Below, piece by piece: positions 3,412 through 64,000 of a stretch of 64,000 nucleotides of DNA; the first letter of the stretch is position 1, and the number at the start of each line of letters is the position of its first letter. The notes under the pieces were generated by a model. That model had not been told where the DNA came from. It saw nothing but the letters and a program-made list of their open reading frames with translations, and searched no databases. A program made the translations under genes and the position numbers. Origin of the DNA: a virus (Duplodnaviria > Heunggongvirae > Uroviricota > Caudoviricetes); the IMG/VR virus record IMGVR_UViG_3300047320_000132, positions 67,101-131,100 of that record; one strand, written 5' to 3'.

Positions 3412-3660
3412 ATGATTAAGACACACAACGCGGAACGTCCGTTTCGCAAGCCGCATCGTAGTTTTTATGGTTCTGGTAAATTCAAGTGGGCAATCTACCC
3501 GGACTATTGGAAGGACACCTGGGGTCAAAAACCACTCCTGGGTTACGTTTGGGCGGATGATGAATTCTACGCCGTACGGGAAGCTTATTCGAAGAATCTG
3601 CTTACCATGAATTACACTTTTAGGCCGAAGGCTGTAAAGATTCACGCAGCTTCAGCCTAA
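3412..3660 (+). CDS. hypothetical protein
   Basis: 82-aa ORF in a compact + strand gene series after the primase gene. Confidence 0.35.
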   Translation: MIKTHNAERPFRKPHRSFYGSGKFKWAIYPDYWKDTWGQKPLLGYVWADDEFYAVREAYSKNLLTMNYTFRPKAVKIHAASA

Positions 3661-3686: not shown

Positions 3687-3965
3687 ATGACAACCAAAGC
3701 ACATCTCATCAACTCGATCAGCGCCGATCTCGGTATTACCAAGAAGGCAGCAGCTGGTTTTATCAACTCCTTTGCCAAGTCGGTACAAGCCGACCTGACA
3801 GCAGCTGGCGAAGCTCTTATCCCGGGCGTCGGTAAGCTGAAGACTCGTGAGCGTTCTGCTCGCTCGGGCCGTAACCCTCGCACGGGTGAAGCTCTGCAAA
3901 TCTCGGCACGTAAGACTATCCGTCTCGCTTCGTCGAAGGGTCTCAAGGCGCTGGTTAACGCCTAA
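3687..3965 (+). CDS. HU/IHF-family histone-like DNA-binding protein
   Basis: 92 aa. MTTKAHLINSISADLGITKKAAAGFINSF...GKLKTRERSARSGRNPRTGEALQISARKTIRL is a full-length match to the bacterial HU fold, including the beta-arm RNPRTGE. An intrinsic terminator follows. Confidence 0.85.
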   Translation: MTTKAHLINSISADLGITKKAAAGFINSFAKSVQADLTAAGEALIPGVGKLKTRERSARSGRNPRTGEALQISARKTIRLASSKGLKALVNA

Positions 3966-4407: not shown

Positions 4408-5304
4408 ATGAAACTGAATCAGCCTTTTACCCGTCGCATCATTTCCCCTAACGAAGAACGTGTTGCATTCAATACACCGGAGCCGGTAAAGGCTGAGGTT
4501 TCTGAGGTTCCCCCTCTTACTCCGAAAGAAGACGATGTTCCTTCGTTAGTTTCGAATAAGCCTGAAGTGCCTAGACTTGAACGGGCTTCGTCGTCTAAGA
4601 AACAAGTTGAACTCAAGGTTCCGGGAGAGGAAGAAGTTGAAGCTTCAATAGCTATGACCGATGGCGAGGTGCTTTCGCCTGAACTTCGTCAAGCGGCAGA
4701 GCCGGAAGTTCCTGAGCTTCAGCCCAAGAAGTCTGTTGAAGATGTCCTTGCAATCCCTAAGCTTGTCGTTACTAAACGTGAGCCGGTAGCTGTAGATCCG
4801 ATTGACATTCCGAAACTCGATGCGTATAACACGATGGAGGTAGTTCATCTGTTGATCGGTCGTTCACCGGAAGACGAAGAGATCATTTTGCTTCAGTCGT
4901 TTCCTGAGCGCTTCGTTCGCACCAAGAAGACGGAGGAATTTCACGCTTCTCTGCTAGCCAGGGTAAGCAGTCACTACTCAAGTATGGTGGATGCCCGGAA
5001 GTATGATTTTGAGGAGCGTCAACATCACCATGTTCTTGCCCCTAAGCCTATTTCTGCTCTCCACGCTAATAAGGGCGTGGAATGGATGGCGTACGTGCTT
5101 GATGATGGTAAAGCTGCTGAAGCGGATATCATTGGCTATGCATTACAACATAGCGTAGCTGATACAGTAGCTATACGGGAAATCAATGAGGCAAAACTGT
5201 ATCAGAGGGATCCTTCTTACGTTTTCACCTGGGCATTGGTGAAAGTGAAGATCGGCCACGACTTCGGTTCCTACAAGTTGTCTGAACTGATGCCTTCGCT
5301 GTAA
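4408..5304 (+). CDS. hypothetical protein with Pro/Glu-rich N-terminal region
   Basis: 298 aa. Low-complexity PE-rich N-terminus and a globular C-terminus. Followed by a terminator hairpin at about 5305-5340. Confidence 0.5.
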   Translation: MKLNQPFTRRIISPNEERVAFNTPEPVKAEVSEVPPLTPKEDDVPSLVSNKPEVPRLERASSSKKQVELKVPGEEEVEASIAMTDGEVLSPELRQAAEPEVPELQPKKSVEDVLAIPKLVVTKREPVAVDPIDIPKLDAYNTMEVVHLLIGRSPEDEEIILLQSFPERFVRTKKTEEFHASLLARVSSHYSSMVDARKYDFEERQHHHVLAPKPISALHANKGVEWMAYVLDDGKAAEADIIGYALQHSVADTVAIREINEAKLYQRDPSYVFTWALVKVKIGHDFGSYKLSELMPSL

Positions 5305-5340
5305 CCTTGAAGGGGCCGAATCTGGTCCCTTATTTTTTAG
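5305..5340 (+). terminator. intrinsic terminator
   Basis: GGGGCCGAATCTGGTCCC hairpin followed by TTATTTTTT. Confidence 0.5.
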
Positions 5341-5540
5341 CCGCTTGGAGCCTCTCTTGAAGGCAGGACTAGGTTTGGTATCGACCAGGCAAGCCAGCCC
5401 GTCAGAGAGGCTGTATTGAAGTCTAAGAGGTATTCCAGTCCGAAGTTTGTGGTAGTTTTTCAGACAGAACTAGAGTCCTGAGAAAAACTGGACAGACGAT
5501 TAAAAAATTTCTTATTTAAAATCAAAGACTTAAACTAGAG

Positions 5541-5940
5541 TGTCCAATTTGTCCAATTTCACTTTGCGCTCTTGGACAGCCTCAAACGTATGCTGGCTAA
5601 GGCTTTCAGAGGATTTGTCCAATTGTCCAGTTTTTTTTCTCAACCATACCTCACTTCCTTTTTCACAATAAATTTACTAGAAAATAAAAACATAGGGTTT
5701 ACACCTAGAGTCTAAGAATCCGGGGGTCTTATATATATATAATATTTGAACTTTTTAAAAAATATATTTATATATAAGAGAGGTATTGTGGGTTTTGTAA
5801 AAAGATGTGTTACTCAATTAGAAAGTGAGGTATGGTTGAAAATTTTTTCTGGACAATTGGACAAATCCTCTGAAACCCAAGCTGGATAAGGCTTTGCGGC
5901 TGTCCAGTTTCATTTTATTTTTTGGACAAATTGGACACGA
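5541..5940. repeat. about 110-bp imperfect inverted repeat flanking an AT-rich core, built from TTGTCCAAT iterons
   Basis: The left arm (5541-5655) is the reverse complement of the right arm (5821-5940), sharing GGTTTCAGAGGATTTGTCCAATTGTCCAG and TTGTCCAATTTGTCCAA. A partial copy sits at 5941-6000. A further copy runs from 63874 to 64000 and is cut off by the window end. Confidence 0.7.
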
Positions 5941-6179
5941 AGCTCTGAAAGCCAAGCTGGGTAAGGCTTTGCGGGTTTTTGGGTTTGTCCAGTTTTTTTA
6001 AAGTCATCATTCAGGTCCTCTTTTGGTATAAGTAAAGTATGGAGAGAACTGTTGATTTCGCCTTCAGCAGAGTTCCCCTTACCTTGAATTGGGCTTACGA
6101 TTTCGTAGGGCCTTGACAAGTTGGTCTTTTACCGGAAGCTGATCCCCAATCTTCATCCGGTTTTTTTTGGTCAATTGAA

Positions 6180-7019
6180 ATGAACGACAACGTACAAACT
6201 ATCGAACAAATCCGTCACCTAGACTTCAAGGCGCTAGGTGACATGCATAAGAAATATGAGAAGAACTACTTCAGTGAAAAACTGATGCCTGGTCTTCCCA
6301 CGGTCATCCGTTTCGACGGCAACGCTTTTCACACGTTCACAAAGAACCTTAGCAAGCCTTACGACAAGGATCTGGCACAGACATTCCAATGCACGGTCGA
6401 CGATCTGATTCGAGATTTGAATCCTGATCTCGCATATCATCAAAGCGATGAGATCAGCCTCTTCTGGTTCAATCTCGATACTGAGAAACCTCTTGAGTTT
6501 GATGGTAGCGTTCAGAAGTGGTTGAGTGTGTATGCAGCAAAGTGTTCGGTTATTTTTAACTCGTACCTGCAGGGCTTTCTACCAAACAAGTTTGCTGAAC
6601 GCCCAGTCTTCGATGCTCGGGTATATCAGTATCCTCGTTGGGACCTGGCATACGATTATTTTATCTGGAGGCAGTGGGACGCCAGAAAGAATAGCGTAAG
6701 CATGGCTGCACACAGTGTCTTTTTTCATGGTGAACTTCACAAGAAGAACACTGCTGAGAAAATTGAAATGTTACGTGAGAAAGGCATCAACTTTGCAGAG
6801 TACCCAGAGTCGTTCCGTCAAGGCACGTTCACCCGTAAAGTTAAGAAGATCATGCTGATCGATGACGGAACCTGGAATCGTATCCCGGAGAAGCATCGCG
6901 GTAGCAGGGAAGTAGAACGTAGTGCGATCGTGAGGCTCACGAACATTCCGAAGCTTACGTCGTTGACGGTAAGCGATGGTAGTTTCAGGCTCTTCCACGA
7001 TCAAGCCAACGTTGCCTAA
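6180..7019 (+). CDS. Thg1-like protein (tRNA-His guanylyltransferase family 3'-5' nucleotidyltransferase)
   Basis: 279 aa. VIRFDGNAFHTFTK and AYHQSDEISLFW align to the Thg1/TLP catalytic motifs (VVRxDGRGFHKFTK, GQSDEISFVF). Confidence 0.65.
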   Translation: MNDNVQTIEQIRHLDFKALGDMHKKYEKNYFSEKLMPGLPTVIRFDGNAFHTFTKNLSKPYDKDLAQTFQCTVDDLIRDLNPDLAYHQSDEISLFWFNLDTEKPLEFDGSVQKWLSVYAAKCSVIFNSYLQGFLPNKFAERPVFDARVYQYPRWDLAYDYFIWRQWDARKNSVSMAAHSVFFHGELHKKNTAEKIEMLREKGINFAEYPESFRQGTFTRKVKKIMLIDDGTWNRIPEKHRGSREVERSAIVRLTNIPKLTSLTVSDGSFRLFHDQANVA

Positions 7020-7101: not shown

Positions 7102-8361
7102 GTGGTAAAACTCGCCGACATGGCGCTAAACGACTTGTATGCAAAACCAAAGATTACAAGTACAGTAGAGGCAGTTATTCATGTTAAAGAGGATTTCAGT
7201 AAGATCAGCCCGACGTATTGTGAGAAGGTCTGTAAGCTGAAGTGCAAGCAATACGAATCTGTCTTTTTAGCCAAGAAAGAAGTAGACATTCTTATCATCC
7301 AGGATCATGCAGCACCGGACGGTAAGTGGGATAAGTTTGAAGGTCAGCAAGAAAAGCTGATGCAGGACATCATTTTCCATCTGTGTAAGGCAGCTGGGTT
7401 CGGGAACCTGACGTATCGTATGGTCGATCTGTTGAAGTGTTCTCCGACAGAAGCAGACTTTCCGAATGGGAAAGCTCCGACAGCAACAACGCTGATGAAG
7501 TGCAGACCCTATCTCTGGCAGGAGATTGAATCCTGTAAACCTAAGGTGATCATTAGTCTGGCAACTGCAGTGACTAAAGCGTTGGGTTACAAGAAACACA
7601 GTAATACAGGTAATCGTGGTGAGTACGTAGATAACGTCGTGATTACGATTCATCCAAGAGCACTGACGATGATTCGTCAAAACGCTTCAGGAGCCTTCTG
7701 GGGACAGGAATTGTATGGAGTGATCCTCCGTGACTTCAAGAAGGCAGCAGCGATGGTTAGAGGTGAGTTGAAGCCTCCGAAGTTGGAAGATGCTGTAAAG
7801 TTTTATCGTGAGAATAGAATTCGAGTAGCAGAGTCGATTGAAGATGTGAAGAAATACGTCGATACGGTCCAGAGTCTTCCTCCTAATTCGATCATAAGTT
7901 TTGATACGGAAACCACTTCGCTCGACGGTCTTTCTGAAGATGCTCGACTTTTAACTATCCAGTTCGGGTTTAGAGATCCCGTAGACAAAGAGGTAAAGGC
8001 AGTGGTTATTCCGTTATGGCACAGATGTAACACTGCTTATGATGCCGGTGAAGCCTGGGAACTTGTAAAACCGATTCTAGAAAGTGACCGCGCAAAATGT
8101 GGCCACAATTCGAAGTTCGATATTCTTTACATTTGGTTTACAACCGGGGTACGGGTTAAGAACGTAGCTTTTGACACCCTTCTCGTCCTTCATAGTCTTG
8201 ATAGTGGGGCGCAAGGAACCTTTGGTCTTAAAGCTGCAACGTGGGATATTGTGCCTTGGACAGGACTTGGTGGATACGAAAACAGTTTGCCCGCTCTAAC
8301 CAAGGCTAAGAATCTACCTAGCGAAGAAGAAGAGTCAGAAGAGGTTGAAAGTGAAGAATAG
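7102..8361 (+). CDS. DNA polymerase I-like (family A), N-terminal part: 3'-5' exonuclease domain
   Basis: 419 aa. Exo I motif FDTETTSLD. GTG start (ATG alternative at 7120). Acidic C-tail SEEEESEEVESEE, then a TAG stop. The polymerase domain is the separate gene at 8976. Confidence 0.8.
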   Translation: MVKLADMALNDLYAKPKITSTVEAVIHVKEDFSKISPTYCEKVCKLKCKQYESVFLAKKEVDILIIQDHAAPDGKWDKFEGQQEKLMQDIIFHLCKAAGFGNLTYRMVDLLKCSPTEADFPNGKAPTATTLMKCRPYLWQEIESCKPKVIISLATAVTKALGYKKHSNTGNRGEYVDNVVITIHPRALTMIRQNASGAFWGQELYGVILRDFKKAAAMVRGELKPPKLEDAVKFYRENRIRVAESIEDVKKYVDTVQSLPPNSIISFDTETTSLDGLSEDARLLTIQFGFRDPVDKEVKAVVIPLWHRCNTAYDAGEAWELVKPILESDRAKCGHNSKFDILYIWFTTGVRVKNVAFDTLLVLHSLDSGAQGTFGLKAATWDIVPWTGLGGYENSLPALTKAKNLPSEEEESEEVESEE

Positions 8362-8983
8362 ATACATCGACCTGACGGGGAAAGTCTTCGGAAGGCTAAC
8401 GGTAAAAGGTGTCGATACATCTAGGGTTTCGAAGCGTCCTTTTTGGATTTGTGAATGCAGTTGCGGAAATACTAAGTCGATTGCCGGGGCATCGCTAAGA
8501 GGTGGCGATAGCAATTCCTGCGGATGTTTTGCTAAAGAGTTGACTGTAGAGAGAAGTAAGACGCATGGCTTGAGTAAAAGTAAAACATACAAAACTTGGT
8601 CTGGCATGTGGCACAGATGTACTAACCCTAAAAGTACCCAGTACTCAGTATATGGTGGAAGAGGTATATCTGTAGACGACAGTTGGAAGAGTTTCGAAAC
8701 TTTCCTAGCCGATATGGGTGAAAGACCGGAAGGGATGACTATAGATCGGAAAGATGTAAATGGTAATTATTGTAAGGATAACTGCAGATGGGCCACCGAC
8801 AAAGATCAAAGTAATAATCGACGCTCTTCAAAAGTAATCACTTTTAGAGGCGAATCCCTTACCCAAGTACAGTGGGCGGAAAGACTTGGCATTTCAGTTA
8901 CTACTTTGTATACCCGCCTGTTGAATAACTGGCCGTTGGACAAAGCGTTATCTGCAGTTAATTACAGGAAGAAACATGGTTAA
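8345..8983 (+). CDS. HNH homing endonuclease inserted between the polymerase exo and pol genes
   Basis: 212 aa. Phage HNH-type pattern: FGRLTV, WICECSCGN, HRCTNPK, YGGRGI, RKDVNGNYCKDNCRWAT. Overlaps both neighbours by a few nt. Confidence 0.8.
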   Translation: MKVKNRYIDLTGKVFGRLTVKGVDTSRVSKRPFWICECSCGNTKSIAGASLRGGDSNSCGCFAKELTVERSKTHGLSKSKTYKTWSGMWHRCTNPKSTQYSVYGGRGISVDDSWKSFETFLADMGERPEGMTIDRKDVNGNYCKDNCRWATDKDQSNNRRSSKVITFRGESLTQVQWAERLGISVTTLYTRLLNNWPLDKALSAVNYRKKHG

Positions 8984-13856: not shown

Positions 13857-15158
13857 ATGGCCGTACTTACTATCGGGTCTTCGAACCCCAAGTTTTCCTG
13901 GATCATTTCCAAGAACCCTGCAACGATTCGTGAAAGCGCAGAGCCCTACAAGAAATCGATCCGTCAAGGTATGGCGTATGGATGGTTCGGAGCCGATAAT
14001 CAGAGCTTTCGACTTTGGTTTAAAGACAGTCCTCAGAACTGTTCTTTTGCGGAGGGCATTGGCCAAGAGTTTGAATATCTTGACCGTACCCGTTACGCAT
14101 CTCCCTACTTGCCGATTTCGCTGATTACGAACTGTCTTGCTACAGCGTTCAAAACTGTTCAGGAAGAAGACGTTACTGAGCCGTGGAGCGCATATCTGGA
14201 AACTACGGTCGAAATTCGCAGCGCCAGCATGTTGAATCATCTGAATCAACACTTCAATGGTTCCTTCGGGTTGGACAATGGGTACAGCTTCGTAGCCGAG
14301 CATATTGCAGGCTGTGCGTACAAGGTCACTATCTCGGGACCTACCGTTCACGAAATGCTCAATGCGGCAATGGTAATTTTCCTGATGTTCTGCGTTTCGA
14401 CAAAGAGCATCTATGTCAACCTCAAGGGCGATATCGTTGAGAAGTACATTGCTGCGATCAATCGTATCAATGCACCGTACTTCATTCGTTACCTCTTCAA
14501 ACGGAATGTATTTTCAAATCGTGACACATTTCTTAAGAACAAATCGCTGCTTGATACGGACACGATCAACCTCTGGCACGGTGACACCCTTGCTCAGCGT
14601 AAAGAAGCTATCTTCCCCCACCTGGGAGGAGGAGCGACACTCGTTGACATTGGGTGCGGTGAACTCAATTACACGCTCCCACTCAGTTCGAAATATGAAC
14701 AGGTCCTTGCGTTTGAAGCGGATGACGAACTCCGCGAGAACATGCTTGAAAAACTCAAGGGACGAGAAGTCGAAAACGTTATTCTCCGAGATGCTGCAAC
14801 TCCCGAATCGATTGATGAGTGTTCCTTGCTCTTTAGCGGAGCAGACGTGCTCATCACAGAAGTTCTGGAGCACATTCCTCTTAAAGATGCAAAACAGCTT
14901 GTTGATGCCGTTCTGAAGACTGACTTTAACAAGTTGGTTATCACGGTTCCGAACAAGGCTTTCAATGTGAATTATCTGATGACAGAAGATCAGTTCCGTC
15001 ACGATGATCACAAGTGGGAAATGAATGAACAGGACTTCTACGATTGGTTCTGGAAAATCTCTAAGTCCCATGCAGTTTCAACTATCGGCCAAGGTATCGG
15101 CGATGCGGTAAATGGCGTTCACACTTCGACGATGCTTGTCGTAACGAAAAACAAGTAA
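13857..15158 (+). CDS. hen1: Hen1-like RNA 3'-terminal 2'-O-methyltransferase (partner of Pnkp)
   Basis: 433 aa. The C-terminal SAM methyltransferase motif I LVDIGCGELNY matches bacterial Hen1. The gene sits immediately upstream of the Pnkp-like gene. Confidence 0.7.
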   Translation: MAVLTIGSSNPKFSWIISKNPATIRESAEPYKKSIRQGMAYGWFGADNQSFRLWFKDSPQNCSFAEGIGQEFEYLDRTRYASPYLPISLITNCLATAFKTVQEEDVTEPWSAYLETTVEIRSASMLNHLNQHFNGSFGLDNGYSFVAEHIAGCAYKVTISGPTVHEMLNAAMVIFLMFCVSTKSIYVNLKGDIVEKYIAAINRINAPYFIRYLFKRNVFSNRDTFLKNKSLLDTDTINLWHGDTLAQRKEAIFPHLGGGATLVDIGCGELNYTLPLSSKYEQVLAFEADDELRENMLEKLKGREVENVILRDAATPESIDECSLLFSGADVLITEVLEHIPLKDAKQLVDAVLKTDFNKLVITVPNKAFNVNYLMTEDQFRHDDHKWEMNEQDFYDWFWKISKSHAVSTIGQGIGDAVNGVHTSTMLVVTKNK

Positions 15159-15167
15159 GGATCAACA

Positions 15168-17591
15168 ATGAAAATTCAAACTAAACTCCACACAGTCTTC
15201 ATTTTGGTTGGCCCTTCGATGTGCGGTAAAACCACATTCTCGAAACAGTTCGAACTTGTGTTGAACTTTCAGTTGATGAAAGCAGGACTTGCTGCAGGTT
15301 CGAAGGTTGTAAACTTGAATTCTGATGCTGAACGAATGAACGTCTTGGATGATTTGAGTCTCCATCGTTACGCTCCGGTCATGATGGAAGCTTCGGAAGC
15401 AGCTTTCAACGTGATGATGGCGAAGTTTAAAGCGGCAATTGCGTTCCCGATCAACAGTGAATTCGTAATCGTTGATACTACTGGTATGAACGATACGTTC
15501 CGAAAGGAAATTCGTAAACTCGCTGAAGAAAACGAATATCGTACTGAATTGATTACGTTTGAATATCCGAACTATCAGTACTGGTCGGAATCGAATGAGG
15601 AAGAAAAACGGGTTGTAGAATCGAGCGCCAAGCGATTCAAACAAAGCGTCCTTCCAAATCTCGGTCGTAAAGATCATGATGATTGTATTCGTATCCGTGA
15701 ACGAGACGCCAAAAAGTGGACAGATCTGGAAGTTGAAATCGAAGATTTGGGCAAGTACGCAGCTACTCAGCTCTATCTCGGTCGAGACATGCAGGTGAAT
15801 ATCATCGGAGATGTACATGAACACACGGAAGCTGCTGAACAGCTTGTAGCTAAGGTCGGTGCAAATAGCATCAATGTTCTTGTCGGTGATTACATTGACA
15901 AGGGTAATGACACTGCCAAAGCAATTGCCTTCGCCAGGAAGTTTCACACCGACGGCGGCATTATTGTCCACGGTAATCACGAATCGTATGCTGTGAAGCG
16001 TATCAAGGGTGAAATCAAAAACCCTGATCTGGAGATGGAATCGAAGTATATGAGTTCGCTTGACGTTCTGTTGAAAGACGAAACGTTGGCAGCAGAGCTT
16101 GTGGACTTGTTCGATCGCTGTTCTGTTCCGTTCTTGAAGATTCACGGCAACCAAGTCCGTACAGTTTACGTAACCCATGCTCCGTGCGAGCAGAAGTATT
16201 TGGGTAAGATGAGTTCTGCAGCACTTAAGGCTCAGCGCAATCTGTACGGTGATCGAAAAGAAGACTACCGGAAGGCTTATGAGTTTATTTTCAAGGAAGC
16301 TGTTGGGAATTTTCCTTTGCATGTGTTTGGGCACGTTGCTCACAATGCAGCCAAATTGGAACATCGTAACAAGGTGTTTCTCGATACTGGGGCTGTTTAT
16401 GGCGGCAAGCTTACTGCTTTCTGTTACAAAGGAAATCGTTACTGGTTTGATTCGGTTCAGGCAGCTGAAAAGGTAACGGTTCACAAGGGTCTTCAGAACT
16501 TCTTGACGACTCCGATAGCACCTCCGCAGAAGCCGTTCAATATCTACGACTACAAACTGTCGCCGGAAGATATGAGATTTCTGAAGCGTACTATCGCAAA
16601 CCGAGTTCAGTACATTTCAGGAACTATGGCCCCTGCCCCGTCGACTAACACTGAAATCGAAAGTCTTGAAGCTGGACTTGAGTATTTCAAAAGTCGTGGA
16701 ACGAAGCGGGTCATGCTTCAACCGAAGTACATGGGTTCACGTTGTCAGGCGTATCTATATCGTGGTAAGCCGGAAGAGTGTTTCCTGGTTTCCCGCAATG
16801 GCTTCAAGATTCGCATGACAGAAGACCTTACTGTTATGATTCAGGAACTGCTTGCTAAGTACGAAGGAGAAAGTATCGACTTCTGGCAAGAAGAACTGAT
16901 TCTTGATGGTGAACTTCTGCCGTGGACGACCCTTGGTAAAAGTCTGGTTGACGAACAGTTCCGTGCGTATGAAGGTTTGGTACGTTACGAACTGGATGCA
17001 TTGGCTAACGATGAGGAATTTGCCAAGTTGGGATTCAAGACAAAGGTCGACGTCGAAGCTCGTCAGACTGACTTGAAAGTGTTCAGCGAAACACTAGACA
17101 TCTATGCTCAGGAAGGCCGTCCAGAATACAGTGCATTCTCTATTCTGAAGGTTGACGGTAAGGTGTTTGGTGACAAATTCCAGATTGCAGATTCCTTTGA
17201 CTTGGTTAACCAGGACGACATCGTAATCATCGACCTTGAAAACGATAAAGAGGCTTTGGAAAATGCAAAGACTTTCTTCAACTGTAAAACCGTTGATGAA
17301 AAGATGGAAGGCCTTGTAATCAAGCCTCTTGACGGTACGGCAGATGTTGCACCGTATATGAAGGTTCGGAATGAAAATTACCTGACTCTTGTGTATGGCT
17401 ATGATTACAAGAACCGTTATGAAGCCCTGTGTCGTCAAAAACGTGTCGGCGGTAAGCTGAAGGTTTCTATCAAGGAACACGATCTTGCACTGGCAATGCT
17501 GACAGCAGACAATGGCCCTGCTCTGACTGAACTGGTTGTGAAAATGATCTCGCAACTGAATGAAGAAAAGACGCTGGATCCGCGTTTGTAA
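15168..17591 (+). CDS. pnkp: Polynucleotide kinase-phosphatase with ligase-like adenylyltransferase domain (bacterial Pnkp-type RNA repair enzyme)
   Basis: 807 aa. P-loop kinase ILVGPSMCGKTT. Metallophosphatase motifs GDVHE, GDYIDKGND, VHGNHES. C-terminal nucleotidyltransferase/ligase-like domain around QPKYMGSRC. Domain order matches Pnkp of the Pnkp-Hen1 RNA repair system. Confidence 0.8.
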   Translation: MKIQTKLHTVFILVGPSMCGKTTFSKQFELVLNFQLMKAGLAAGSKVVNLNSDAERMNVLDDLSLHRYAPVMMEASEAAFNVMMAKFKAAIAFPINSEFVIVDTTGMNDTFRKEIRKLAEENEYRTELITFEYPNYQYWSESNEEEKRVVESSAKRFKQSVLPNLGRKDHDDCIRIRERDAKKWTDLEVEIEDLGKYAATQLYLGRDMQVNIIGDVHEHTEAAEQLVAKVGANSINVLVGDYIDKGNDTAKAIAFARKFHTDGGIIVHGNHESYAVKRIKGEIKNPDLEMESKYMSSLDVLLKDETLAAELVDLFDRCSVPFLKIHGNQVRTVYVTHAPCEQKYLGKMSSAALKAQRNLYGDRKEDYRKAYEFIFKEAVGNFPLHVFGHVAHNAAKLEHRNKVFLDTGAVYGGKLTAFCYKGNRYWFDSVQAAEKVTVHKGLQNFLTTPIAPPQKPFNIYDYKLSPEDMRFLKRTIANRVQYISGTMAPAPSTNTEIESLEAGLEYFKSRGTKRVMLQPKYMGSRCQAYLYRGKPEECFLVSRNGFKIRMTEDLTVMIQELLAKYEGESIDFWQEELILDGELLPWTTLGKSLVDEQFRAYEGLVRYELDALANDEEFAKLGFKTKVDVEARQTDLKVFSETLDIYAQEGRPEYSAFSILKVDGKVFGDKFQIADSFDLVNQDDIVIIDLENDKEALENAKTFFNCKTVDEKMEGLVIKPLDGTADVAPYMKVRNENYLTLVYGYDYKNRYEALCRQKRVGGKLKVSIKEHDLALAMLTADNGPALTELVVKMISQLNEEKTLDPRL

Positions 17592-22675: not shown

Positions 22676-23455
22676 TTGGCATACGTTTATAAATGGGTAC
22701 ATACGCCTACTTTACAATGGTACGTGGGAGTGCGATATGCAACGGGATGTCACGTAGATGACGGATACATTTGCAGTTCAGAAAGTGTAAAACCAAGAAT
22801 TCTTCGCAATCCGAGTGAATGGAAAAGAGAGATAGTAGACGTTGGCGACGCTACCGAAATGCAGACTTTAGAGTTAGAGATACTACAGCTTTCCTATAAC
22901 TCTAAAGACACTAGATGCTTAAATAGAAATGCGACAAACGCCCCTCCTAGGTATCAAGGTCAAGATCACCCCTCGTTCGGAAAAGAAGCTTCAGAAGAGA
23001 CTCGTGCAAAGCAGAGCAAAACTCGGAAACGTCTTTACGAAGATTTGGAATTCTACGAAAAAAACGCAGAGAGAGCTAGGCAGGAGGGGTTTAAGAGACG
23101 AGGTATACCTACCGGACCCCATCCTGTAGACGTACGTAATAAAATAAGCGATACTTTAAAAGCCAATCCTCAAGTTATAGCTGCTTGTAAAGCACGAGCA
23201 GAATTACAGAAAGGAAAACCGAATATTAAATTAGGCAGACCTGTAGTAGGGATCTCTATTTCGAAAGATGAATCTGCTAAATATTTCATATCTGCTGGTG
23301 AAGCGGGGCGAAATGGATTTACCCAAAGTCAAATAAATAACTGTTGTAGTGGCAAGAGAAAATCTCATAAAGGCTATACCTGGAGATACGCTACGAAAGA
23401 AGAGATACTTGAACAATTTAATGAACACGCAGAAATATTACTCAGTAGGAATTGA
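22676..23455 (+). CDS. GIY-YIG homing endonuclease
   Basis: 259 aa. N-terminal VYKWVHTPTLQWYVGV is the GIY..YIG motif. C-terminal NUMOD-like DNA-binding repeats. Confidence 0.75.
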   Translation: MAYVYKWVHTPTLQWYVGVRYATGCHVDDGYICSSESVKPRILRNPSEWKREIVDVGDATEMQTLELEILQLSYNSKDTRCLNRNATNAPPRYQGQDHPSFGKEASEETRAKQSKTRKRLYEDLEFYEKNAERARQEGFKRRGIPTGPHPVDVRNKISDTLKANPQVIAACKARAELQKGKPNIKLGRPVVGISISKDESAKYFISAGEAGRNGFTQSQINNCCSGKRKSHKGYTWRYATKEEILEQFNEHAEILLSRN

Positions 23456-26462: not shown

Positions 26463-27017
26463 TTAATCGATTTTTAATTTGAAGTGTTTGACGACCTCTA
26501 CACATAGTTGTTGAAATTCTTCTAATGACAAATCGCCTTTAGCAACGTTGGCTGCTTTGCAAGCAAAATTGCAGTTTTCTAAAGTCCCCGGTCCACCTTT
26601 AGATCTAGGGACAATATGATCTAGATGATATTCTGACGTTTTGTGTAGATCTATATCTCTTCCCGTAAGGTAACACTTACCAGTAAATTTGGAGAGAAGG
26701 TCTTCCCAATTAAAAGAATCCGGAGTAAGCCTGGTTACTTGTCTACCTTTAGAGTCTTTAGTTTGAAAATCTCTAATTTTATCGTGGACTGGTTTTTTAA
26801 CTTGACCGCTTGCAGCGATAAATCGTTCCTTCTTTTGAAGAAGAGGATTATTCTTACGGAGTTCTTTGGTGCGATCTCTTACTTTTTGTTTTTGCCCATC
26901 ACCCAAGTGATAGGATATGGTAGCCTTAGAGCAATTAAGCTGTTTTTTAATTTCTGAGTATGAAGCGCCCTGCTCTCTCAGTGATTTGATTTGTTGTTCA
27001 AGAGTTGTATTTAACAT
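26463..27017 (-). CDS. HNH homing endonuclease with N-terminal HTH, inside the tRNA cluster
   Basis: 184 aa. HLDHIVPRSKGG...NCNFACKAAN is an HNH motif. The N-terminal helix-turn-helix resembles sigma region 4. It is the only credible - strand gene in the window. Confidence 0.75.
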   Translation of the reverse strand: MLNTTLEQQIKSLREQGASYSEIKKQLNCSKATISYHLGDGQKQKVRDRTKELRKNNPLLQKKERFIAASGQVKKPVHDKIRDFQTKDSKGRQVTRLTPDSFNWEDLLSKFTGKCYLTGRDIDLHKTSEYHLDHIVPRSKGGPGTLENCNFACKAANVAKGDLSLEEFQQLCVEVVKHFKLKID

Positions 27018-27179: not shown

Positions 27180-27362
27180 ATGTCTTCTAAAACAACGCAG
27201 TACAAGGACATGGTCCTGTCTACCAACACAGATCTTTTCAAAGCAGTTCAGGACGGTGAAACTGAAAAAGCTGCGCAGATGTACAAAGATCTGAACGACG
27301 CCTTCTATAAAGCTAACCCTGGGTGGAAGCCCTATCCTTCGAAGGTGAAACATGTCGCATAA
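27180..27362 (+). CDS. hypothetical small protein
   Basis: 61 aa from the internal Met. The upstream part of the track ORF overlaps tRNA-Tyr. Confidence 0.3.
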   Translation: MSSKTTQYKDMVLSTNTDLFKAVQDGETEKAAQMYKDLNDAFYKANPGWKPYPSKVKHVA

Positions 27363-27735
27363 ACAAGTTATCGTAATGCGCAAAGACCTTGGAATGCGCA
27401 AAGGGAAAATGATTGCTCAAGGTGCGCATGCAAGTCTTGCGGCGATTCTGAGTCAGATGCGAGAATACATCCACGACACTCTTGAGTTGCAGATGGATGA
27501 AAGAACCAAGCCTTGGCTCACAGGCAACTTCAAAAAAGTGTGTGTATATGTAAATTCCGAAGAGGAACTACTCGCACTCTATGCAAAGGCAAAAGCTTCT
27601 GGCATAATCACTGCATTGATTACAGACTCAGGTCTGACAGAATTTCACGGTGTCCCGACCAATACCTGCATCGCAGTTGGTCCGGATTTTGAAGATAAGA
27701 TAGATACGGTGACCGGTGGGTTGCCACTTCTATAG
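27352..27735 (+). CDS. pth2: Peptidyl-tRNA hydrolase, PTH2 family
   Basis: 127 aa. VIVMRKDLGMRKGKMIAQGAHAS...FKKVCVYVNSEEEL...ITDSGLTEFHGVPTNTCIAVGP matches the PTH2 signature along its whole length. Confidence 0.8.
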   Translation: MSHKQVIVMRKDLGMRKGKMIAQGAHASLAAILSQMREYIHDTLELQMDERTKPWLTGNFKKVCVYVNSEEELLALYAKAKASGIITALITDSGLTEFHGVPTNTCIAVGPDFEDKIDTVTGGLPLL

Positions 27736-31424: not shown

Positions 31425-31500
31425 GGGAATATAGCTCAGTTGGCAGAGCAGCGGATTCTAAATCTGAAGGTCTCGGGTTCGAGCCCCGATGTTCCTACCA
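31425..31500 (+). tRNA. tRNA with CUA anticodon (amber suppressor-type). Amino acid identity unresolved.
   Basis: A 76-nt canonical cloverleaf. Acceptor GGGAATA/TGTTCCT. D-arm GCTC-AGTTGGCA-GAGC. Anticodon stem GCGGA/TCTGA, loop TTCTAAA, so positions 34-36 are CTA. Short variable arm. T-arm TCGGG-TTCGAGC-CCCGA. A73. CCA encoded. Confidence 0.55.
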
Positions 31501-38674: not shown

Positions 38675-39205
38675 ATGAAAGAAGAGCGTCAGACACCTTT
38701 GGTTTCGATTAACCCTAAAGACCTACGCATCGACTGTTATGGCGGTGCCGTAGGTGGTCAAAGAGTAGGAATGGCTAATGGTGTGAGAATCACGCACATC
38801 CCTAGCGGTATTGTGACCGAATGCATTACAGAACGCAGTCAACACAAGAACAGAAACGCGGCCTTGAAAGAACTCGAAGAGCTAGTCTATGTGTGGGAAG
38901 GTTCCAAAGTATCGGAGCCTCATCCTGACGATTTCGCAGTAGACAAGTTCGCAGCCATGATGAAAGCGAAGCTTGCAAAGTCTCGTGAGAAGGGTAGAAG
39001 CGGTTGGGATGATCCAGAACAATGCAGTACAAAACGATTAGCGAATCTTCTTGTCAGCCATGTCCCCAAAGGGGATCCCGTAGACATTGCAAATCTGGCA
39101 ATGATGCTGGCGCTAAGAGAAGCCGACCCGGCATTGCTAAAAGACGCCTTTGAAGGCGAAGCTATGGCCATGATGGAACGGGAAGGCTGGTCTTCTGGAG
39201 GCTAA
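38675..39205 (+). CDS. GGQ-motif peptidyl-tRNA hydrolase domain protein (class I release factor-like; ArfB/PrfH-like)
   Basis: 176 aa. [48 protein letters not shown] is the RF-1 catalytic domain signature (GGQ plus the ERSQ..N block). The C-terminal half is unrelated. Confidence 0.65.
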
Positions 39206-39384: not shown

Positions 39385-39801
39385 ATGAACAACGAAATCA
39401 AACAGGAATGGATCTCTGCTCTGCGTAGCGGCGAATACAAACAAGCCAAACATGTCTTGAACGGTGACGGCGGCATGTGTTGTCTTGGCGTTCTCTGTGA
39501 TCTTTACATGAAGAAAACTGGAGAAGGTGAATGGGTGCCGAGAACCGCTAAGGAGGAAGATAGCAGGGTTTTGCAAAAGTATACTTCCATTGGTACATTT
39601 GAAGGGTCAGAAGTTGTACCTCCTGCTAGTGTTATGAAATGGGCCGATCTCGACAAGGAAAATCCCAATACTGGAATTTACCAGGGATTTACAAAGTCCT
39701 TTGAAGATACCCCTGGCTACTTGGGGTATTCTTTGGCCGAACTCAACGACGGTGGGCTTACCTTCAACCAGATTGCTGACGTTATTCAATTCACGCTATG
39801 A
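39385..39801 (+). CDS. tandem paralog 1 of a five-gene family of short acidic proteins
   Basis: Conserved N-terminus MNNEIKQEWISALRSGEYKQ...GMCCLGVLCDLY and conserved C-terminus LNDGGLTFNQIADVIQ, with a variable middle. Preceded by a 33-aa membrane mini-ORF with an ATGA overlap. Confidence 0.6.
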   Translation: MNNEIKQEWISALRSGEYKQAKHVLNGDGGMCCLGVLCDLYMKKTGEGEWVPRTAKEEDSRVLQKYTSIGTFEGSEVVPPASVMKWADLDKENPNTGIYQGFTKSFEDTPGYLGYSLAELNDGGLTFNQIADVIQFTL

Positions 39802-40151
39802 ACCAAGAAATCAAAGCAAAGTGGGTAGCTGCGCTTCGCAGCGGTGAGTACAAACAGAGCGTCGGCTACTTGAAAAGAGACGATGGGTTCTGTTGCCTCG
39901 GAGTCCTTTCCGATGTTCACGCAAAGGAAGGAGGTCCGCAATGGGAACATGCTGGCTCTGGGATTCAAGAGGTTGAACGCTGTGGGGGGTATCCCCCTCA
40001 AGTAACTCTTAATTGGGCTGAATTCGCAGAAACTTCTCTCGTTCCTGGTTTGCTTACCAGAGAAGGGGATGGGGAAGGCTTGGTAAGCCTGAACGACTCC
40101 GGTGAATTCACCTTTTCTCAAATCGCTGACGTTATCGAGTACTTCTTCTAA
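39798..40151 (+). CDS. tandem paralog 2
   Basis: MNQEIKAKWVAALRSGEYKQ...GFCCLGVLSDVH...LNDSGEFTFSQIADVIEYFF. ATGA overlap. Confidence 0.6.
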   Translation: MNQEIKAKWVAALRSGEYKQSVGYLKRDDGFCCLGVLSDVHAKEGGPQWEHAGSGIQEVERCGGYPPQVTLNWAEFAETSLVPGLLTREGDGEGLVSLNDSGEFTFSQIADVIEYFF

Positions 40152-40501
40152 TGAACCAAGAAATCAAAGCCAAGTGGGTAGCTGCGCTTCGCAGCGGAGA
40201 ATATGTCCAAGGTCAACGATACCTGAATGGTCCCGATGGATTTTGTTGTCTGGGTGTTTTATGTGATCTATACGGTAAAGAAACTGGAGAAAAATGGTTC
40301 GATGAAGGAGGTGACGGAAAACGCATGCTGGACGGCTGGACTGTTCCTCCGCTACAAGTCCAGAAGTGGGCGGATCTTGGTAGTGATCTCGGATACACCG
40401 GCGTAGAAACTCCGGCTACTGACTCTGTTTCGCTTGTCGATCTAAATGACTCTGGTCTGCCTTTCTCTCAAATCGCTGACATCATCCAATACGCACTGTG
40501 A
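40151..40501 (+). CDS. tandem paralog 3
   Basis: MNQEIKAKWVAALRSGEYVQ...GFCCLGVLCDLY...LNDSGLPFSQIADIIQYAL. ATGA overlap. Confidence 0.6.
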   Translation: MNQEIKAKWVAALRSGEYVQGQRYLNGPDGFCCLGVLCDLYGKETGEKWFDEGGDGKRMLDGWTVPPLQVQKWADLGSDLGYTGVETPATDSVSLVDLNDSGLPFSQIADIIQYAL

Positions 40502-40854
40502 ACAACGAAGTTAAAGCCAAATGGGTAGCCGCTCTTCGGAGCGGTGAATACAAACAGGGAACAACTAGACTCAAGACTGTTTGGGATGAAGAAAATCCGA
40601 AGTTTTGCTGTCTTGGAGTTCTCTGTGATTTGCATGACAAGGAACTCAACTGCGAACAATCGTTTGAAAGCATCGCAGGAGAATTACCTGATCATGTAAA
40701 AAAGTGGGCGGGTTTGGAAGAAAACAACCCGTACATGCGTCAACCAGCTTCGCTTGCTTATCCGAAAGAATGGAGAACTCATATTTCTGTTCTTAACGAC
40801 ATCAAGCAATTTTCTTTCAACCAACTAGCTGATCTCATCGAAGCACAACTATGA
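40498..40854 (+). CDS. tandem paralog 4
   Basis: MNNEVKAKWVAALRSGEYKQ...KFCCLGVLCDLH...LNDIKQFSFNQLADLIEAQL. ATGA overlap. Confidence 0.6.
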   Translation: MNNEVKAKWVAALRSGEYKQGTTRLKTVWDEENPKFCCLGVLCDLHDKELNCEQSFESIAGELPDHVKKWAGLEENNPYMRQPASLAYPKEWRTHISVLNDIKQFSFNQLADLIEAQL

Positions 40855-41219
40855 AAAAGCGTATCAAGAACAAATGGATCAAGGCACTGCGCGGCGGTGA
40901 TTACAAACAGACTACGGGTGCGTTGCGTGACGACGAAGGTTTCTGTTGCCTCGGCGTTCTATGCAACATCCATGCTCAGGAACATCCTGAAGTTGCGGCG
41001 AAAGAACCCTGGCCAGACGAATATATGGGCGCTAGTGGCTTGCTTCCCCTGGCGGTAGCTGAATGGGCTGGACTCAATCCTTCTGTTTTGGACTCGGCTG
41101 ATGTACCGACCGATGTCAAAGTCACGTATCGTGGGAAAGAAACTAAGCTTTCTACGTTGAACGACACTGACCAACTCAGCTTCAAGAAGATCGCCCGAGT
41201 CATTGACCGCTGTTTGTAA
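40851..41219 (+). CDS. tandem paralog 5 (most divergent)
   Basis: MKKRIKNKWIKALRGGDYKQ...GFCCLGVLCNIH...LNDTDQLSFKKIARVIDRCL. Confidence 0.55.
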   Translation: MKKRIKNKWIKALRGGDYKQTTGALRDDEGFCCLGVLCNIHAQEHPEVAAKEPWPDEYMGASGLLPLAVAEWAGLNPSVLDSADVPTDVKVTYRGKETKLSTLNDTDQLSFKKIARVIDRCL

Positions 41220-48015: not shown

Positions 48016-49164
48016 ATGTCAATTATATCCCTTAAGCACGAAATCGTGCAGCAGTATGAAATCGTTTCTACGGAACGCAAACCCAAAGAGTTTGATCTTG
48101 CAGTAGTAATGGGTCGTTTTGAACCCTATCACGTTGGTCACCAGATTCTCGTCAACAAAGCACTTCTGATCGCAGATCGTGTTCTTGTATTGATCGGGTC
48201 TGCAAACGCCCCCCGCACTATCAAGAATCCCTTCACGTACGATGAACGTGCGACGATGATCGCTATGTCTCTTACGCAAGAAGAGATGGGTACCTTGCAC
48301 GACAGCAGATTCTTGACGGAAGCTCTTGTAGACAACATGTACTCTGACGATGACTGGGCAAAACAAGTCCAGGAAAAAATCTCCTACTGGACTCCGAAAT
48401 ATGATGCTTCAACTCCAGTTGAAAAACGTAAACCAATAAAGATCGCAATCGTCGGCAATAAAAAAGACGAGAGTTCGTATTATCTCGATCTATTTCCGCA
48501 ATACGACTACGTCCCGGTAGATGAAGTAAAACTTGGATTTGACGCTACGTCTATTCGTGAAATCATCTTCGAAAAGCCGGGGTTCATCGATCTGCTGAAA
48601 AGCCTAGTTCCTTCGTACACTTTCGACTTTCTGAAAGACTTTATCAAGTCTCCGGAATACTACCGTCTGTCTCGTGAATACCAGATGGTTAAGAAGTATA
48701 AGGAAGCCTGGTCAGTGGCCCCGTATGCACCTACGTTTGTTACCGTGGATGCAGTGGTGAAGAAAGCTGGACACGTTCTTTTAGTCAAGCGGAAGGCGGC
48801 TCCTGGAGAAGGACTCTGGGCATTGCCGGGTGGATTTGTAGAACAGAATGAGAGGCTCAGAGATGCGGCACTTCGTGAACTCAAAGAAGAAACAAGCATT
48901 GATCTGCCTTCTGGTCTTCTGCTTGGTAGTATGGGCGAAGGCGTTGTTTTTGACCATCCTAATCGCAGCTTGCGTGGGCGCACTTTTACCCATGCTTTCC
49001 TCTTTGATCTTGACCGGGCGGATAAGAAAGCTGGAATCCCCAAGACCAAAGCAGGAGACGACGCAGCAGATGCCAAGTTCTTCACGTACGACGAAACCCT
49101 GAAGATGGCAGATAAGGTCTACGAAGATCATCTTCCCATTATTCGCAAGCTGGTCGGTATCTGA
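48016..49164 (+). CDS. nadM: Bifunctional NMN adenylyltransferase / Nudix hydrolase (NadM-Nudix type)
   Basis: The N-terminal cytidylyltransferase motif MGRFEPYHVGHQ is an HxGH box. The C-terminal Nudix box is GGFVEQNERLRDAALRELKEETSI. Confidence 0.75.
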   Translation: MSIISLKHEIVQQYEIVSTERKPKEFDLAVVMGRFEPYHVGHQILVNKALLIADRVLVLIGSANAPRTIKNPFTYDERATMIAMSLTQEEMGTLHDSRFLTEALVDNMYSDDDWAKQVQEKISYWTPKYDASTPVEKRKPIKIAIVGNKKDESSYYLDLFPQYDYVPVDEVKLGFDATSIREIIFEKPGFIDLLKSLVPSYTFDFLKDFIKSPEYYRLSREYQMVKKYKEAWSVAPYAPTFVTVDAVVKKAGHVLLVKRKAAPGEGLWALPGGFVEQNERLRDAALRELKEETSIDLPSGLLLGSMGEGVVFDHPNRSLRGRTFTHAFLFDLDRADKKAGIPKTKAGDDAADAKFFTYDETLKMADKVYEDHLPIIRKLVGI

Positions 49165-49868
49165 TGAGCAACACCATTTCCGAAGAAGATTTGACCATAA
49201 AGAATCTAACCGCTAAGTACTACGTTTATTCTTTAAGGGCTGAAAATGAACACATGCCGTTTTATATCGGTATAACTGCTGTTAATCGTAGACGTTTTAA
49301 CGAACATATGTGCAGAGCTAATAAGGGAGACAGTAAACTTGTCTATACCAAAATTAGAAAATGTATAAATGAAAACGTTAGAATAATTCACGAAGTATTA
49401 TTAACTTCAGAGTCTCAGAGCGTAGCCCTTGAAATGGAAAAGTTTTTAATTCAGTCGTATGGTAGGCAGGATATTAAAACAGGTATCCTTAAAAATCATA
49501 CGGCTGGGGGAGACGGTGTACATGAGTATCGTCATACTGAAAAAGCCCGTGAGAAAATGAAACTGGCTAAGCTTGGCAATAAGTTAAACGTTGGGCGTAA
49601 ACGACCTGATGTTGTTGAAAAATGGAGTAAGCCTATTTCTATGTTTAATCACAAAGGCGAATTGGTTAACACATTTAATTCTGCAAGAGAAGCTTGGAAA
49701 GAGACGGGTATTCATTTTGGCGGTATTTCAGCCGTATTAAGTGGTAAGAATAAACGAGTCAAACAAAAACCAACAGGTGATTATTTTGTATTCAGATTTC
49801 GAGAAGAATCTTGTACAAGTATTGAGCCTTTTAAAAATCAAAAATCTGGTCGTAGCCCTAAGCAATAG
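49164..49868 (+). CDS. GIY-YIG homing endonuclease between nadM and nadV
   Basis: 234 aa. KYYVYSL...PFYIGIT is the GIY-YIG motif. C-terminal NUMOD-like repeats. Ends with TAG. Confidence 0.75.
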   Translation: MSNTISEEDLTIKNLTAKYYVYSLRAENEHMPFYIGITAVNRRRFNEHMCRANKGDSKLVYTKIRKCINENVRIIHEVLLTSESQSVALEMEKFLIQSYGRQDIKTGILKNHTAGGDGVHEYRHTEKAREKMKLAKLGNKLNVGRKRPDVVEKWSKPISMFNHKGELVNTFNSAREAWKETGIHFGGISAVLSGKNKRVKQKPTGDYFVFRFREESCTSIEPFKNQKSGRSPKQ

Positions 49869-57871: not shown

Positions 57872-58099
57872 ATGGGTTTTCTATATTACCTCATAGGTAC
57901 TGTGATTTCGTACTTTATTCTAGTTATGCTTCTAGGATGGTTTCTGGGTGGTGAACTAGACCTTAGTGATCCAGACGATGTTGTTGCTTCACTTGGATTT
58001 CCAGCAATAGCTGCGGTATTTTGGCCTATTACGCTCCCTCTTTCGCTAGCAGCAGTTGTAGCTTACAAAATCCTCCAGATTTTTGAAAAGAAGAAATGA
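57872..58099 (+). CDS. small membrane protein
   Basis: 75 aa from the internal ATG. Two TM helices. Confidence 0.4.
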   Translation: MGFLYYLIGTVISYFILVMLLGWFLGGELDLSDPDDVVASLGFPAIAAVFWPITLPLSLAAVVAYKILQIFEKKK

Positions 58100-58100
58100 A

Positions 58101-63835: not shown

Positions 63836-63870
63836 AAAGGCCGGGGTTTCGACTCGGCTTTTTTTAGCCT
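63836..63870 (+). terminator. intrinsic terminator, same family as the one at 52452
   Basis: GGCCGGGGTTTCGACTCGGCT hairpin followed by TTTTTTTAG. Confidence 0.55.
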
Positions 63871-64000
63871 TGAAAAAAACTGGACAAATGAGGAATCACT
63901 GAAAGCCTTACTGGTATTGGGTTGCTGGTTACGTGTCCAATTTGTCCAATTTCACTTTGCACTATTGGACAGCCGCAAAGCCTTATCTGGCTTGAGTTCT

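Follow-up and report, generated by a model that had tools for sequence, protein, structure and literature searches.

Palindromic cassettes of lineage-specific site arrays around a conserved AT-rich core recur in a clade of ~180-kb lytic phages

What is the role of a repeat-laden interval that interrupts the genes of a large lytic phage and returns elsewhere in the same genome? The question is raised by a 64,000-nt stretch of the Caudoviricetes record IMGVR_UViG_3300047320_000132 (hereafter the window, to whose positions coordinates refer unless a phage is named), which is part of a large lytic-phage genome with nearly all transcription on the plus strand. An initial annotation had reported an iteron-rich inverted-repeat region (5330-6180), with a further copy at the window end, and had proposed either a replication origin or operator arrays for a phage regulator. 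Herein we describe this region as a palindromic cassette that is a conserved cis-acting element of a clade of ~180-kb lytic phages that are related to Salmonella phage Arash and to the Vibrio phage D69, and we weigh the functions that its architecture, distribution and spacing allow.

The interval 5305-6179, flanked by a 298-aa open reading frame (ORF; 4408-5304) and the Thg1-like gene (6180-7019), is indeed gene-free, in that its sole ORF (69 aa, minus strand) is probably spurious and no credible one is present. The inverted-repeat stretch within it is real and larger than first noted, since positions 5483-5999 form a single long imperfect palindrome (517 bp, for a cassette of ~520 bp) that ends in a perfect 12-bp terminal inverted repeat. 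Its two inverted arms were recovered as a 59-nt pair (5601-5659 and 5820-5878, 85% complementary) plus an outer pair that is complementary at 17 of 17 positions (5540-5556 and 5922-5938), and blastn aligned 5573-5659 with 5906-5820 at 80%. Folded as single-stranded DNA, 5480-6000 gave one hairpin of −107.7 kcal/mol (z = −12.9), and none of 100 shuffled sequences did as well. Arm A (5483-5659, plus strand) carries six TGTCCA-type sites, at 5489(−), 5541(+), 5550(+), 5573(−), 5616(+) and 5624(+), and arm B (5820-5999, minus strand), an inverted copy of arm A, has its sites at 5850(−), 5858(−), 5901(+), 5923(−), 5932(−) and 5986(+). Read from 5483 to 5659 on the plus strand and from 5999 to 5820 on the minus strand, the two arms show identical site spacing, TGGACA-52/54-TGTCCA-9-TGTCCA-22/23-TGGACA-43-TGTCCA-8-TGTCCA, which includes tandem pairs 8-9 bp apart in both orientations. 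The 12 TGTCCA/TGGACA hexamers in 517 bp compare with 0.23 expected (Poisson P = 3 × 10−17), and 71 copies of the arm site give the consensus (A/G)T(T/C/G)TGTCCA(A/G)TTT. Arm A also contains the S2 element (~5579-5612), a T8 run (5631-5638) and, at the boundary of the inverted repeat, the block AACCATACCTCACTT (5642-5656), and the boundary block of arm B is AAGTGAGGTATGGTT (5823-5837). Arm B is made of two tandem 75-nt units (5844-5899 versus 5918-5974, 86%), the second of which corresponds to a "partial arm" described earlier at 5941-6000. The near-identical module at the window end turned out to be a second cassette's left arm, which the end of the window truncates (arm C, 63873-64000, plus strand); its sites at 63881(−), 63934(+), 63943(+) and 63966(−) are spaced as in arm A, its four hexamers in 127 bp are again in excess (P = 4 × 10−7), and 63933-63992 is 88.5% identical to 5540-5598. 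In a relative, the cassette syntenic with arm C (L021) runs on into an identical AT core.

The asymmetric core between the arms (5660-5819, 160 bp) has 24% GC against 46% for the window, which bears out the AT-rich centre of the initial annotation: nowhere else in the 64 kb is GC content as low, and when 150-bp segments are ranked by GC the lowest 11 all fall at 5621-5731. It holds TATATATA, which is found nowhere else in the window, and two outward-facing TATATATAAGA boxes, forming an inverted repeat (5727-5741 and 5765-5779), around TTTTTAAAAAA. Its 70-nt centre (5718-5787) is identical in the window and in a 134-kb IMG/VR relative (L016, L021), while the flanks of the centre diverge by 12-25%, and is recognisably homologous in Arash, D69, L157, L158, L162, L165 and L171, as a clade alignment and further cores show; the cores share the plan GGGGnTC-TATATATA ... 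TTTTTAAAAAA ... TATATAAAG(A)GG. Taken whole, the core is 82% identical to that of L016 on the same strand, and matches that of L023, the sole metagenome locus, only as the reverse complement (73% versus 60%). Within Arash a 105-nt core is 100% identical among five cassettes, and 20 of the 21 occurrences of TATATA lie inside these five.

A blastn search of INPHARED with the cassette region returned no match. At the protein level, PolA led to Arash (180.8 kb, 49% identity) and to the Vibrio phages D69, D181 and D148 (~187 kb, 46% identity), and nearer relatives came from IMG/VR and from the metagenome contig of L023; a scan of genome contigs matched only an uncultured metagenome-assembled genome with no host clue, and a degenerate core-pattern scan of IMG/VR was unspecific, with more than 120 chance AT-rich matches. 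At least 12 of ~20 relatives examined have a homologous cassette upstream of the UDG-exonuclease gene, the carriers including L153/L016, L154, L156, L157-L159, L162, L165, L170, L171, L023, Arash and D69, and none was seen by a simple TATATA-cluster criterion alone in L163, L164 and L166-L169 (for L163 the ORFs were also listed). One cassette always stands beside the primase, HU-like, UDG-exonuclease and PolA genes, as does the first one in the window, near the primase, the HU-like gene and the DNA polymerase, and positions are syntenic among phages whose PolA proteins are only 45-49% identical. The cassettes are not artefacts of assembly, a caution attached to the initial annotation, as copies are present in complete isolate genomes; the other caution, a lack of strand or orientation conservation among related genomes, does not refute the reading either, their position being conserved across relatives.

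What differs among lineages is the arms. Each cassette has at least five copies of a lineage-specific 8-9-bp motif, namely TGTCCAA in the window group, TGTAACC in Arash and L171, TTGCWACAT / GTGTAACAT in D69 and TCCGCACTT in L162 (10 copies), around a core that is conserved clade-wide, and relatives also show outer arrays of three to five direct sites with an exact 10-bp period. All sites of the left arm of L023 point one way, and the repeats thus cannot be partners in an RNA stem, which argues that the arm repeats are DNA sites bound by protein.

The copies are regularly distributed along the genomes. Arash (180.8 kb) has cassettes at 26.6, 66.4, 100.2, 138.5 and 173.3 kb (gaps of 33.8-39.8 kb), two Arash-like IMG/VR genomes (182.6 kb) have five copies each (gaps of 31.7-41.2 kb), D69 (186.7 kb) has them at 67.4, 125.2 and 185.4 kb (gaps of 57.8-68.7 kb), and a 181.4-kb contig close to the window has them at 67.6, 113.9 and 172.8 kb (gaps of 46, 59 and 76 kb). 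Evenness was assessed against random points on a circle, where the probability that all gaps in Arash reach at least 33.8 kb is (1 − 5 × 33.8/180.8)^4; this gave P of ~2 × 10−5 for Arash and 0.005 for D69, values that are not independent tests, as the lineages share ancestry and syntenic cassette positions. The two window cassettes are 58 kb apart, matching the 59-kb gap of the related 181.4-kb contig. Many IMG/VR contigs of the window lineage start or stop inside a cassette, as expected of short-read assemblies when a 300-500-bp repeat occurs three times per genome, and the cassettes thereby also explain why metagenomic assemblies of these phages come in pieces of 46, 59 and 75 kb. The window itself ends (...GCTTGAGTTCT, 63990-64000) at the same arm position as contig 3300047320_000137 (compare L017, L004, L005 and L008), and its source contig probably stops at 64000 since assemblers break in this repeat.

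Relative to the flanking genes, the asymmetric core occurs in both orientations. In L023 it runs opposite to that of the window (reverse-complement score of 65 versus 7 on the same strand), and for L016 the outcome is the opposite, its core matching that of the window on the same strand; the core of L013 is inverted relative to L016/L021, the first cassette of the 134-kb contig carries the reverse complement (98.8%) of the left half of the other cassettes, and copy 2 of D69 is inverted relative to copies 1 and 3. The orientation is nonetheless position-specific: wherever all three cassettes of the window lineage were seen there were two "anti" and one "co", core orientation is identical in D69, D181 and D148, and it is uniform across the five copies in three Arash-type genomes. 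Given this conservation among relatives, flips of the core have been rare evolutionary events, and the element functions in either direction.

Arm A has a predicted IHF site of perfect consensus, AATCAAAGACTTA (WATCAANNNNTTR; 5520-5532, plus strand), which is located between its outer site and its tandem site pair, with an A/T tract just before it. Against a background of 0.03-0.06 sites per kb in complete genomes, the IHF consensus reaches 1-4.5 per kb in the cassettes of the window lineage and D69, a 20- to 100-fold enrichment, always pointing inward, and more copies are visible in L154 and L162. The strict consensus is absent from the Arash cassettes; a degenerate relative of the IHF-like element, AAAGCC-N11-GGCTTT, occupies the equivalent position in other arm units and is present in the Arash cassettes too. 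Judged by its sequence, the cassette appears designed for a bent nucleoprotein complex to form around a core that melts easily and is conserved in sequence. The phage's own 92-aa DNA-bending protein of the HU/IHF family (3687-3965, plus strand; HU 9 × 10−14, IHF 1 × 10−13, phrog_379) is a candidate to act in trans on the IHF-like and S2 elements. By tblastn, an HU-like gene lies beside the syntenic cassette in nine of 13 relatives (L153, L154, L156-L158, L163, L168, L170 and the close relative of L159); it is kept in D69 (gp197), and in Arash it is an unannotated ORF (66702-66977, plus strand, OQ632216.1; 31702-31977 in L026) 100 bp from cassette 2. The gene annotated in its place, gp116c of Arash (66432-66938, minus strand), overlaps both that ORF and cassette 2 and is probably a mis-call.

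The transcriptional setting of the cassette is also constant, with a terminator preceding every copy examined. In the window, the intrinsic terminator of ORF 4408-5304 (5310-5341, plus strand; a 9-bp stem with five G-C pairs at 5310-5331, then ATTTTTTAGC) would shield the first cassette from read-through transcription, as we infer from its placement, and the same order of terminator and cassette is found in L016, L023, L157 and Arash. The Ro60 operon ends in another intrinsic terminator (GCCGGGGTTTCGACTCGGC then TTTTTTT; 63840-63866, plus strand), syntenic with L021 and directly before arm C. On the far side of the first cassette, a promoter-like extended −10 element, CTTTTGGTATAAG (6020-6032, plus strand), fires away from it and faces the Thg1, UDG-exonuclease and PolA genes. 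The underlying motif TTTTTGGTATAA, allowing up to one mismatch, occurs eight times in the window against 0.39 expected, always on the plus strand (3978, 6020, 24296, 39218, 45686, 52506, 54408 and 59051), and is probably the general early or middle promoter of the phage. Outward-firing promoter-like elements lie downstream of 12 of the 13 window-lineage cassettes, with TGGTATAA ~200 bp outside the inverted-repeat boundary in the same proportion. The ~135-nt leader between this promoter and the Thg1 start (6035-6168), conserved with a few compensatory changes in L016, L023 and L154, contains a terminator hairpin (6132-6160) with a T8 run that stops 12 nt before the Thg1 ATG, and could be an attenuator or a small RNA. 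Such a context fits the proposal of operator arrays at the starts of transcription modules, as regards both the terminators and the 12 of 13 promoters. The regulator that had been put forward for it does less well: the XRE protein (59141-59404) is a genuine helix-turn-helix protein, yet tblastn found no homologue in Arash or D69, and it is hence not a clade-wide partner.

We tentatively favour, at somewhat less than even odds, the reading that the cassettes are multiple, evenly spaced replication origins. It is ranked first because lineage-specific sites, IHF and an AT-rich element together follow the logic of initiators and iterons, and because arm motifs that vary by lineage around a conserved core are the pattern expected from initiator/iteron co-evolution. 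Several regularly spaced copies, as found here, also agree with it, as do the helical phasing of the 10-bp outer arrays in relatives, the syntenic position next to replication genes, the terminator and outward promoter on either side, and a function that does not depend on orientation; multiple origins are known from T4, herpesviruses and archaea. Under such a model, a rapidly co-evolving phage DNA-binding protein would load onto the arm sites in a cooperative manner; bending by host IHF, by the phage HU/IHF-like protein or by both would let the two arms wrap around the core; and the TATATATA/T5A6 core would melt, aided by the negative supercoiling that transcription from the outward promoter leaves in its wake, much as gidA transcription supplies it at oriC. 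The upstream terminator would keep incoming transcription off the cassette, synthesis would be started by the primase encoded close by, together with the T7-type PolA and a gp2.5-like single-strand binding protein, and several evenly spaced origins would cut the copying time of a 180-kb genome.

A number of observations weigh against these origins. The cassette has the repeated-site cluster and the adjacent AT-rich element of an iteron origin, but a cognate initiator gene was not found: none of the neighbouring ORFs matched a Rep or initiator family, the C-terminal 600 aa of the primase gave no assignment, and ORF 4408-5304, immediately 5′ of the cassette, has no family or PDB match and no recognisable fold or DNA-binding domain. 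No DnaA box occurs in the cassette within one mismatch, GC and AT skew show no inflection at any Arash or D69 cassette and follow the gene strand instead, and the sites stand in both orientations and in 8-9-bp tandem pairs, not as classic 22-bp direct iterons. In the window's own lineage the spacing is only moderately even (P ~0.05). The core, moreover, is conserved in sequence beyond what an unwinding element usually needs, which points to specific recognition, for example by RNA polymerase. The origin half of the initial annotation is partly supported, its architecture being confirmed. A distinctly less probable alternative, which we still regard as worth entertaining, is that the cassettes are position-dependent genome-organising elements rather than simple origins. 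As evenly spaced entry promoters, they would allow the injected polymerase of the virion to engage a circularly permuted 180-kb genome, and perhaps to draw it into the cell, regardless of the end that enters first; as loop anchors, they would fold the replicating chromosome into three to five equal domains.

Recognition by a polymerase is the substance of the strongest of the specific rivals, a bidirectional hub of early promoters in which the two outward TATATA boxes would be used by a virion-packaged multisubunit RNA polymerase and the arms would act as operator or enhancer arrays, with IHF looping and a lineage-specific regulator. We hold it to be possible, with roughly one chance in four. 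The relative Arash does package a multisubunit polymerase with a sigma-like factor, its virion containing the beta-like gp206 (the most abundant protein), the beta′ gp216 and the sigma gp10 (PMC10585845). The core boxes TTTATATATTAC (Arash), TTTATATATTAT (L157) and TATATATATTAG (D69) resemble the experimentally defined promoter of the AR9 virion polymerase, AAATATATATTAT-N6-G (PMC5312081), at 9-10 of 13 positions, the window box TATATATATAAT being weaker, and promoters of the phiKZ type are extended AT-rich elements (PMC8244752). A core that is conserved clade-wide, as polymerase recognition would predict, and a core motif restricted to cassettes at operon starts agree with such a hub, and even spacing would bring a promoter in early from any end of a circularly permuted genome. 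Against this, there are three to five copies per genome where phiKZ and AR9 have 28-41 early promoters; the orientation of the core varies relative to the flanking genes, and two Arash copies lie among late and structural genes; the separate and far commoner TTTTTGGTATAA already follows each cassette and is the better candidate for a general early promoter; no sigma-70-type promoter was found by a simple scan of 5200-6300, core included; and the arm hairpins would halt transcripts leaving the core. The origin and virion-polymerase models are not exclusive, as origins can be transcription-activated.

Regular spacing in three lineages would also suit an element of chromosome architecture, in which protein-coated arms plus IHF would form a topological barrier, a loop anchor or a strong gyrase-type site that divides the genome into three to five equal supercoiled domains, and phage Mu has a central strong gyrase site whose role depends on its position. 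Orientation-independent placement at operon boundaries after terminators, the IHF sites, the phage HU-like gene and a palindrome able to extrude as a cruciform all accord with this, but the ~60 window ORFs scanned yielded no gyrase, SMC or ParB-type partner, the strict conservation of the core sequence is left unexplained, and we know of no precedent in lytic phages; we consider it unlikely. An invertible switch, in which a recombinase or the homologous recombination of the phage would flip the core and vary expression from an internal promoter, is less likely again, despite a core set between 60-180-bp inverted repeats, the finding of both orientations (L023 versus the window, L013 versus L016/L021, and copy 2 of D69) and the window-lineage assemblies that often break inside cassettes. 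Orientation agrees at each position among related genomes, including D69, D181 and D148, and is the same in all five copies of three Arash-type genomes, which weakened the idea of frequent inversion; no tyrosine or serine recombinase (integrase, resolvase or invertase) was found among the ~60 window ORFs scanned; and the contig breaks are accounted for by a repeat of at least 300 bp present three times per genome. Slightly less probable still is a selfish transposon resembling a miniature inverted-repeat transposable element, or a terminase pac site. The perfect terminal inverted repeat would suit the former, and hexamer arrays with IHF around a central region are the layout of the P1 pac site and of the ends of Mu and Tn7. 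Yet there is no target-site duplication, the A5 and T7 flanks merely extending the inverted repeat; a selfish element would not be expected at regular intervals, nor at positions held in common by such divergent phages; and a pac site is normally single-copy near the terminase genes, in contrast to three to five copies mostly far from TerL, the nearest in Arash being 7.5 kb away. The least probable option in our view is that of small RNA genes, either Y-RNA-like partners of Ro60 or short transcripts starting in the core. Arm C follows the Ro60/TROVE gene (61957-63579), the arm ends AAAAACTGGACA and TGTCCAGTTTTT are able to pair and arm RNAs fold stably, and the core is followed by a hairpin and T-run in L016 and L154. 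However, Rfam gave no family match at either the gathering or a permissive threshold, only tRNAs and chance microRNA-like matches on the palindrome; the co-directional sites in the left arm of L023 make a closing stem impossible; half-sites are conserved in sequence and do not co-vary; and cassettes are present both in Arash, whose genome gave no Ro60 homologue by tblastn, and at a great distance from Ro60 within the window itself. Because pairing is not conserved, the Y-RNA idea was abandoned. A hairpin telomere was dropped as well, since the flanking genes differ on the two sides and contig breaks do not fall at the centre of symmetry.

Set beside known systems, the parts of the cassette are familiar. 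The iteron origins of lambda (ori), pSC101, R6K (gamma), P1 (oriR) and P4 (ori/crr) share with it clustered replicon-specific sites, IHF bending, an adjacent AT-rich unwinding element and a site sequence that co-varies with lineage; the cassette differs in its 8-9-bp sites in both orientations, its two inverted arms, the absence of DnaA boxes and of an identified initiator gene, and its three to five near-identical copies per genome. In herpes simplex virus 1 oriS/oriL and in archaeal ORB-DUE-ORB (origin recognition boxes around a DNA unwinding element) origins, an alternating A/T centre is likewise flanked by inverted initiator sites, between transcription units and in several copies per genome, whereas our phages showed no homologue of UL9 or Orc1/Cdc6, have far longer arms (~180 bp) with IHF sites, and infect bacteria. 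T4 is a ~170-180-kb phage with several dispersed origins (oriA, C, E, F and G), some of which have iterons (oriE) or need a nearby promoter, but they are neither copies of one sequence nor palindromic nor regularly spaced. The virion-polymerase promoters of phiKZ and AR9 resemble the core in their extended alternating A/T box, in a clade where Arash packages such an enzyme, and differ in being simple, unidirectional and placed before early genes, in contrast to copies within a 300-650-bp palindrome with site arrays and variable orientation. R1 parC, P1 parS, P1 pac and lambda cosB likewise place two arrays of short repeats on either side of a core, and IHF bends the DNA between the arrays or next to them; these are single-copy beside par or terminase genes, whereas neither kind of partner gene was found in the vicinity of the cassette. 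SPO1 TF1, a phage HU-family protein with site preference, offers a parallel for the phage's own HU/IHF-family protein as a candidate binder. What is unfamiliar is the package, namely identical palindromic cassettes with a conserved core and lineage-specific arms in three to five near-equally spaced copies, in a clade with a virion RNA polymerase. Targeted searches of the literature yielded nothing relevant on regularly spaced phage repeats or on multiple iteron origins and no description of these cassettes, and the Arash paper makes no mention of repeats, promoters or origins.

To our knowledge, how DNA replication is started and how a ~180-kb genome is organised are unknown for almost all large lytic phages outside T4 and T7. 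The cassette is a sharply delimited cis-element found clade-wide, and since two of the phages that carry it are in culture, Arash (Salmonella Typhimurium) and D69 (Vibrio), its function is directly testable by standard experiments. If the cassettes are origins, no other phage group would have been described before with identical origins in several evenly spaced copies, although archaea, herpesviruses and eukaryotes use such a strategy; otherwise, the regular spacing itself calls for a new explanation. Should spacing be selected, and not only sequence, this would be a new principle of phage genome design.

The replication genes of the window encode a primase, UDG-exonuclease, PolA and RNase H, and those for nucleotide metabolism encode ribonucleotide reductase, ThyX and NAD salvage functions. 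For the 991-aa primase, a PDB sequence search gave no match and PHROGs returned only "DNA primase" for its C-terminal part. It is directly followed by an 82-aa protein (FYGSGKFKWAIYPDYW..., 3412-3660) and the HU/IHF-family gene, an order of primase, 82-aa ORF and HU that tblastn found in nine of 13 relatives. The fast-evolving product of ORF 4408-5304 has repeated (V/I)P(P/S/K)L(T) motifs, and in seven relatives an ORF immediately upstream of the cassette shares with it only short PPLT-like repeats, with PPLTxxKK-repeat counterparts at the same position in L157, L158 and L162.

Further along, the window carries 22 tRNA genes in a cluster (24351-45060), one of which (31425-31500) has a CTA anticodon and was called tRNA-Pyl by ARAGORN; a tRNA of this amber-suppressor type may point to stop codons being reassigned or suppressed at a late stage of infection. 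The set of RNA-repair and translation-rescue genes (6180-7019, 13857-17591, 27352-27735, 38675-39205, 58083-58553 and 61957-63579) is unusually rich and comprises the Thg1-like tRNA-His guanylyltransferase, Hen1 with Pnkp, a PTH2 peptidyl-tRNA hydrolase, an RF-1-domain (ArfB-like) protein, YqeY and Ro60/TROVE with a vWA domain, the last encoded upstream of arm C. Genes of the homing-endonuclease type (HNH, GIY-YIG and NUMOD) were found at 8345-8983, 22676-23455, 26463-27017 (minus strand), 49164-49868 and 61080-61526, one of them between UDG-exonuclease and PolA, while the minus-strand gene lies within the tRNA cluster, opposite in strand to its neighbours. Four tandem ORFs of ~117 aa (39798-41219) have near-identical 5′ ends (39798-39844 versus 40151-40197, 98%) and thus represent a recently duplicated small gene family.

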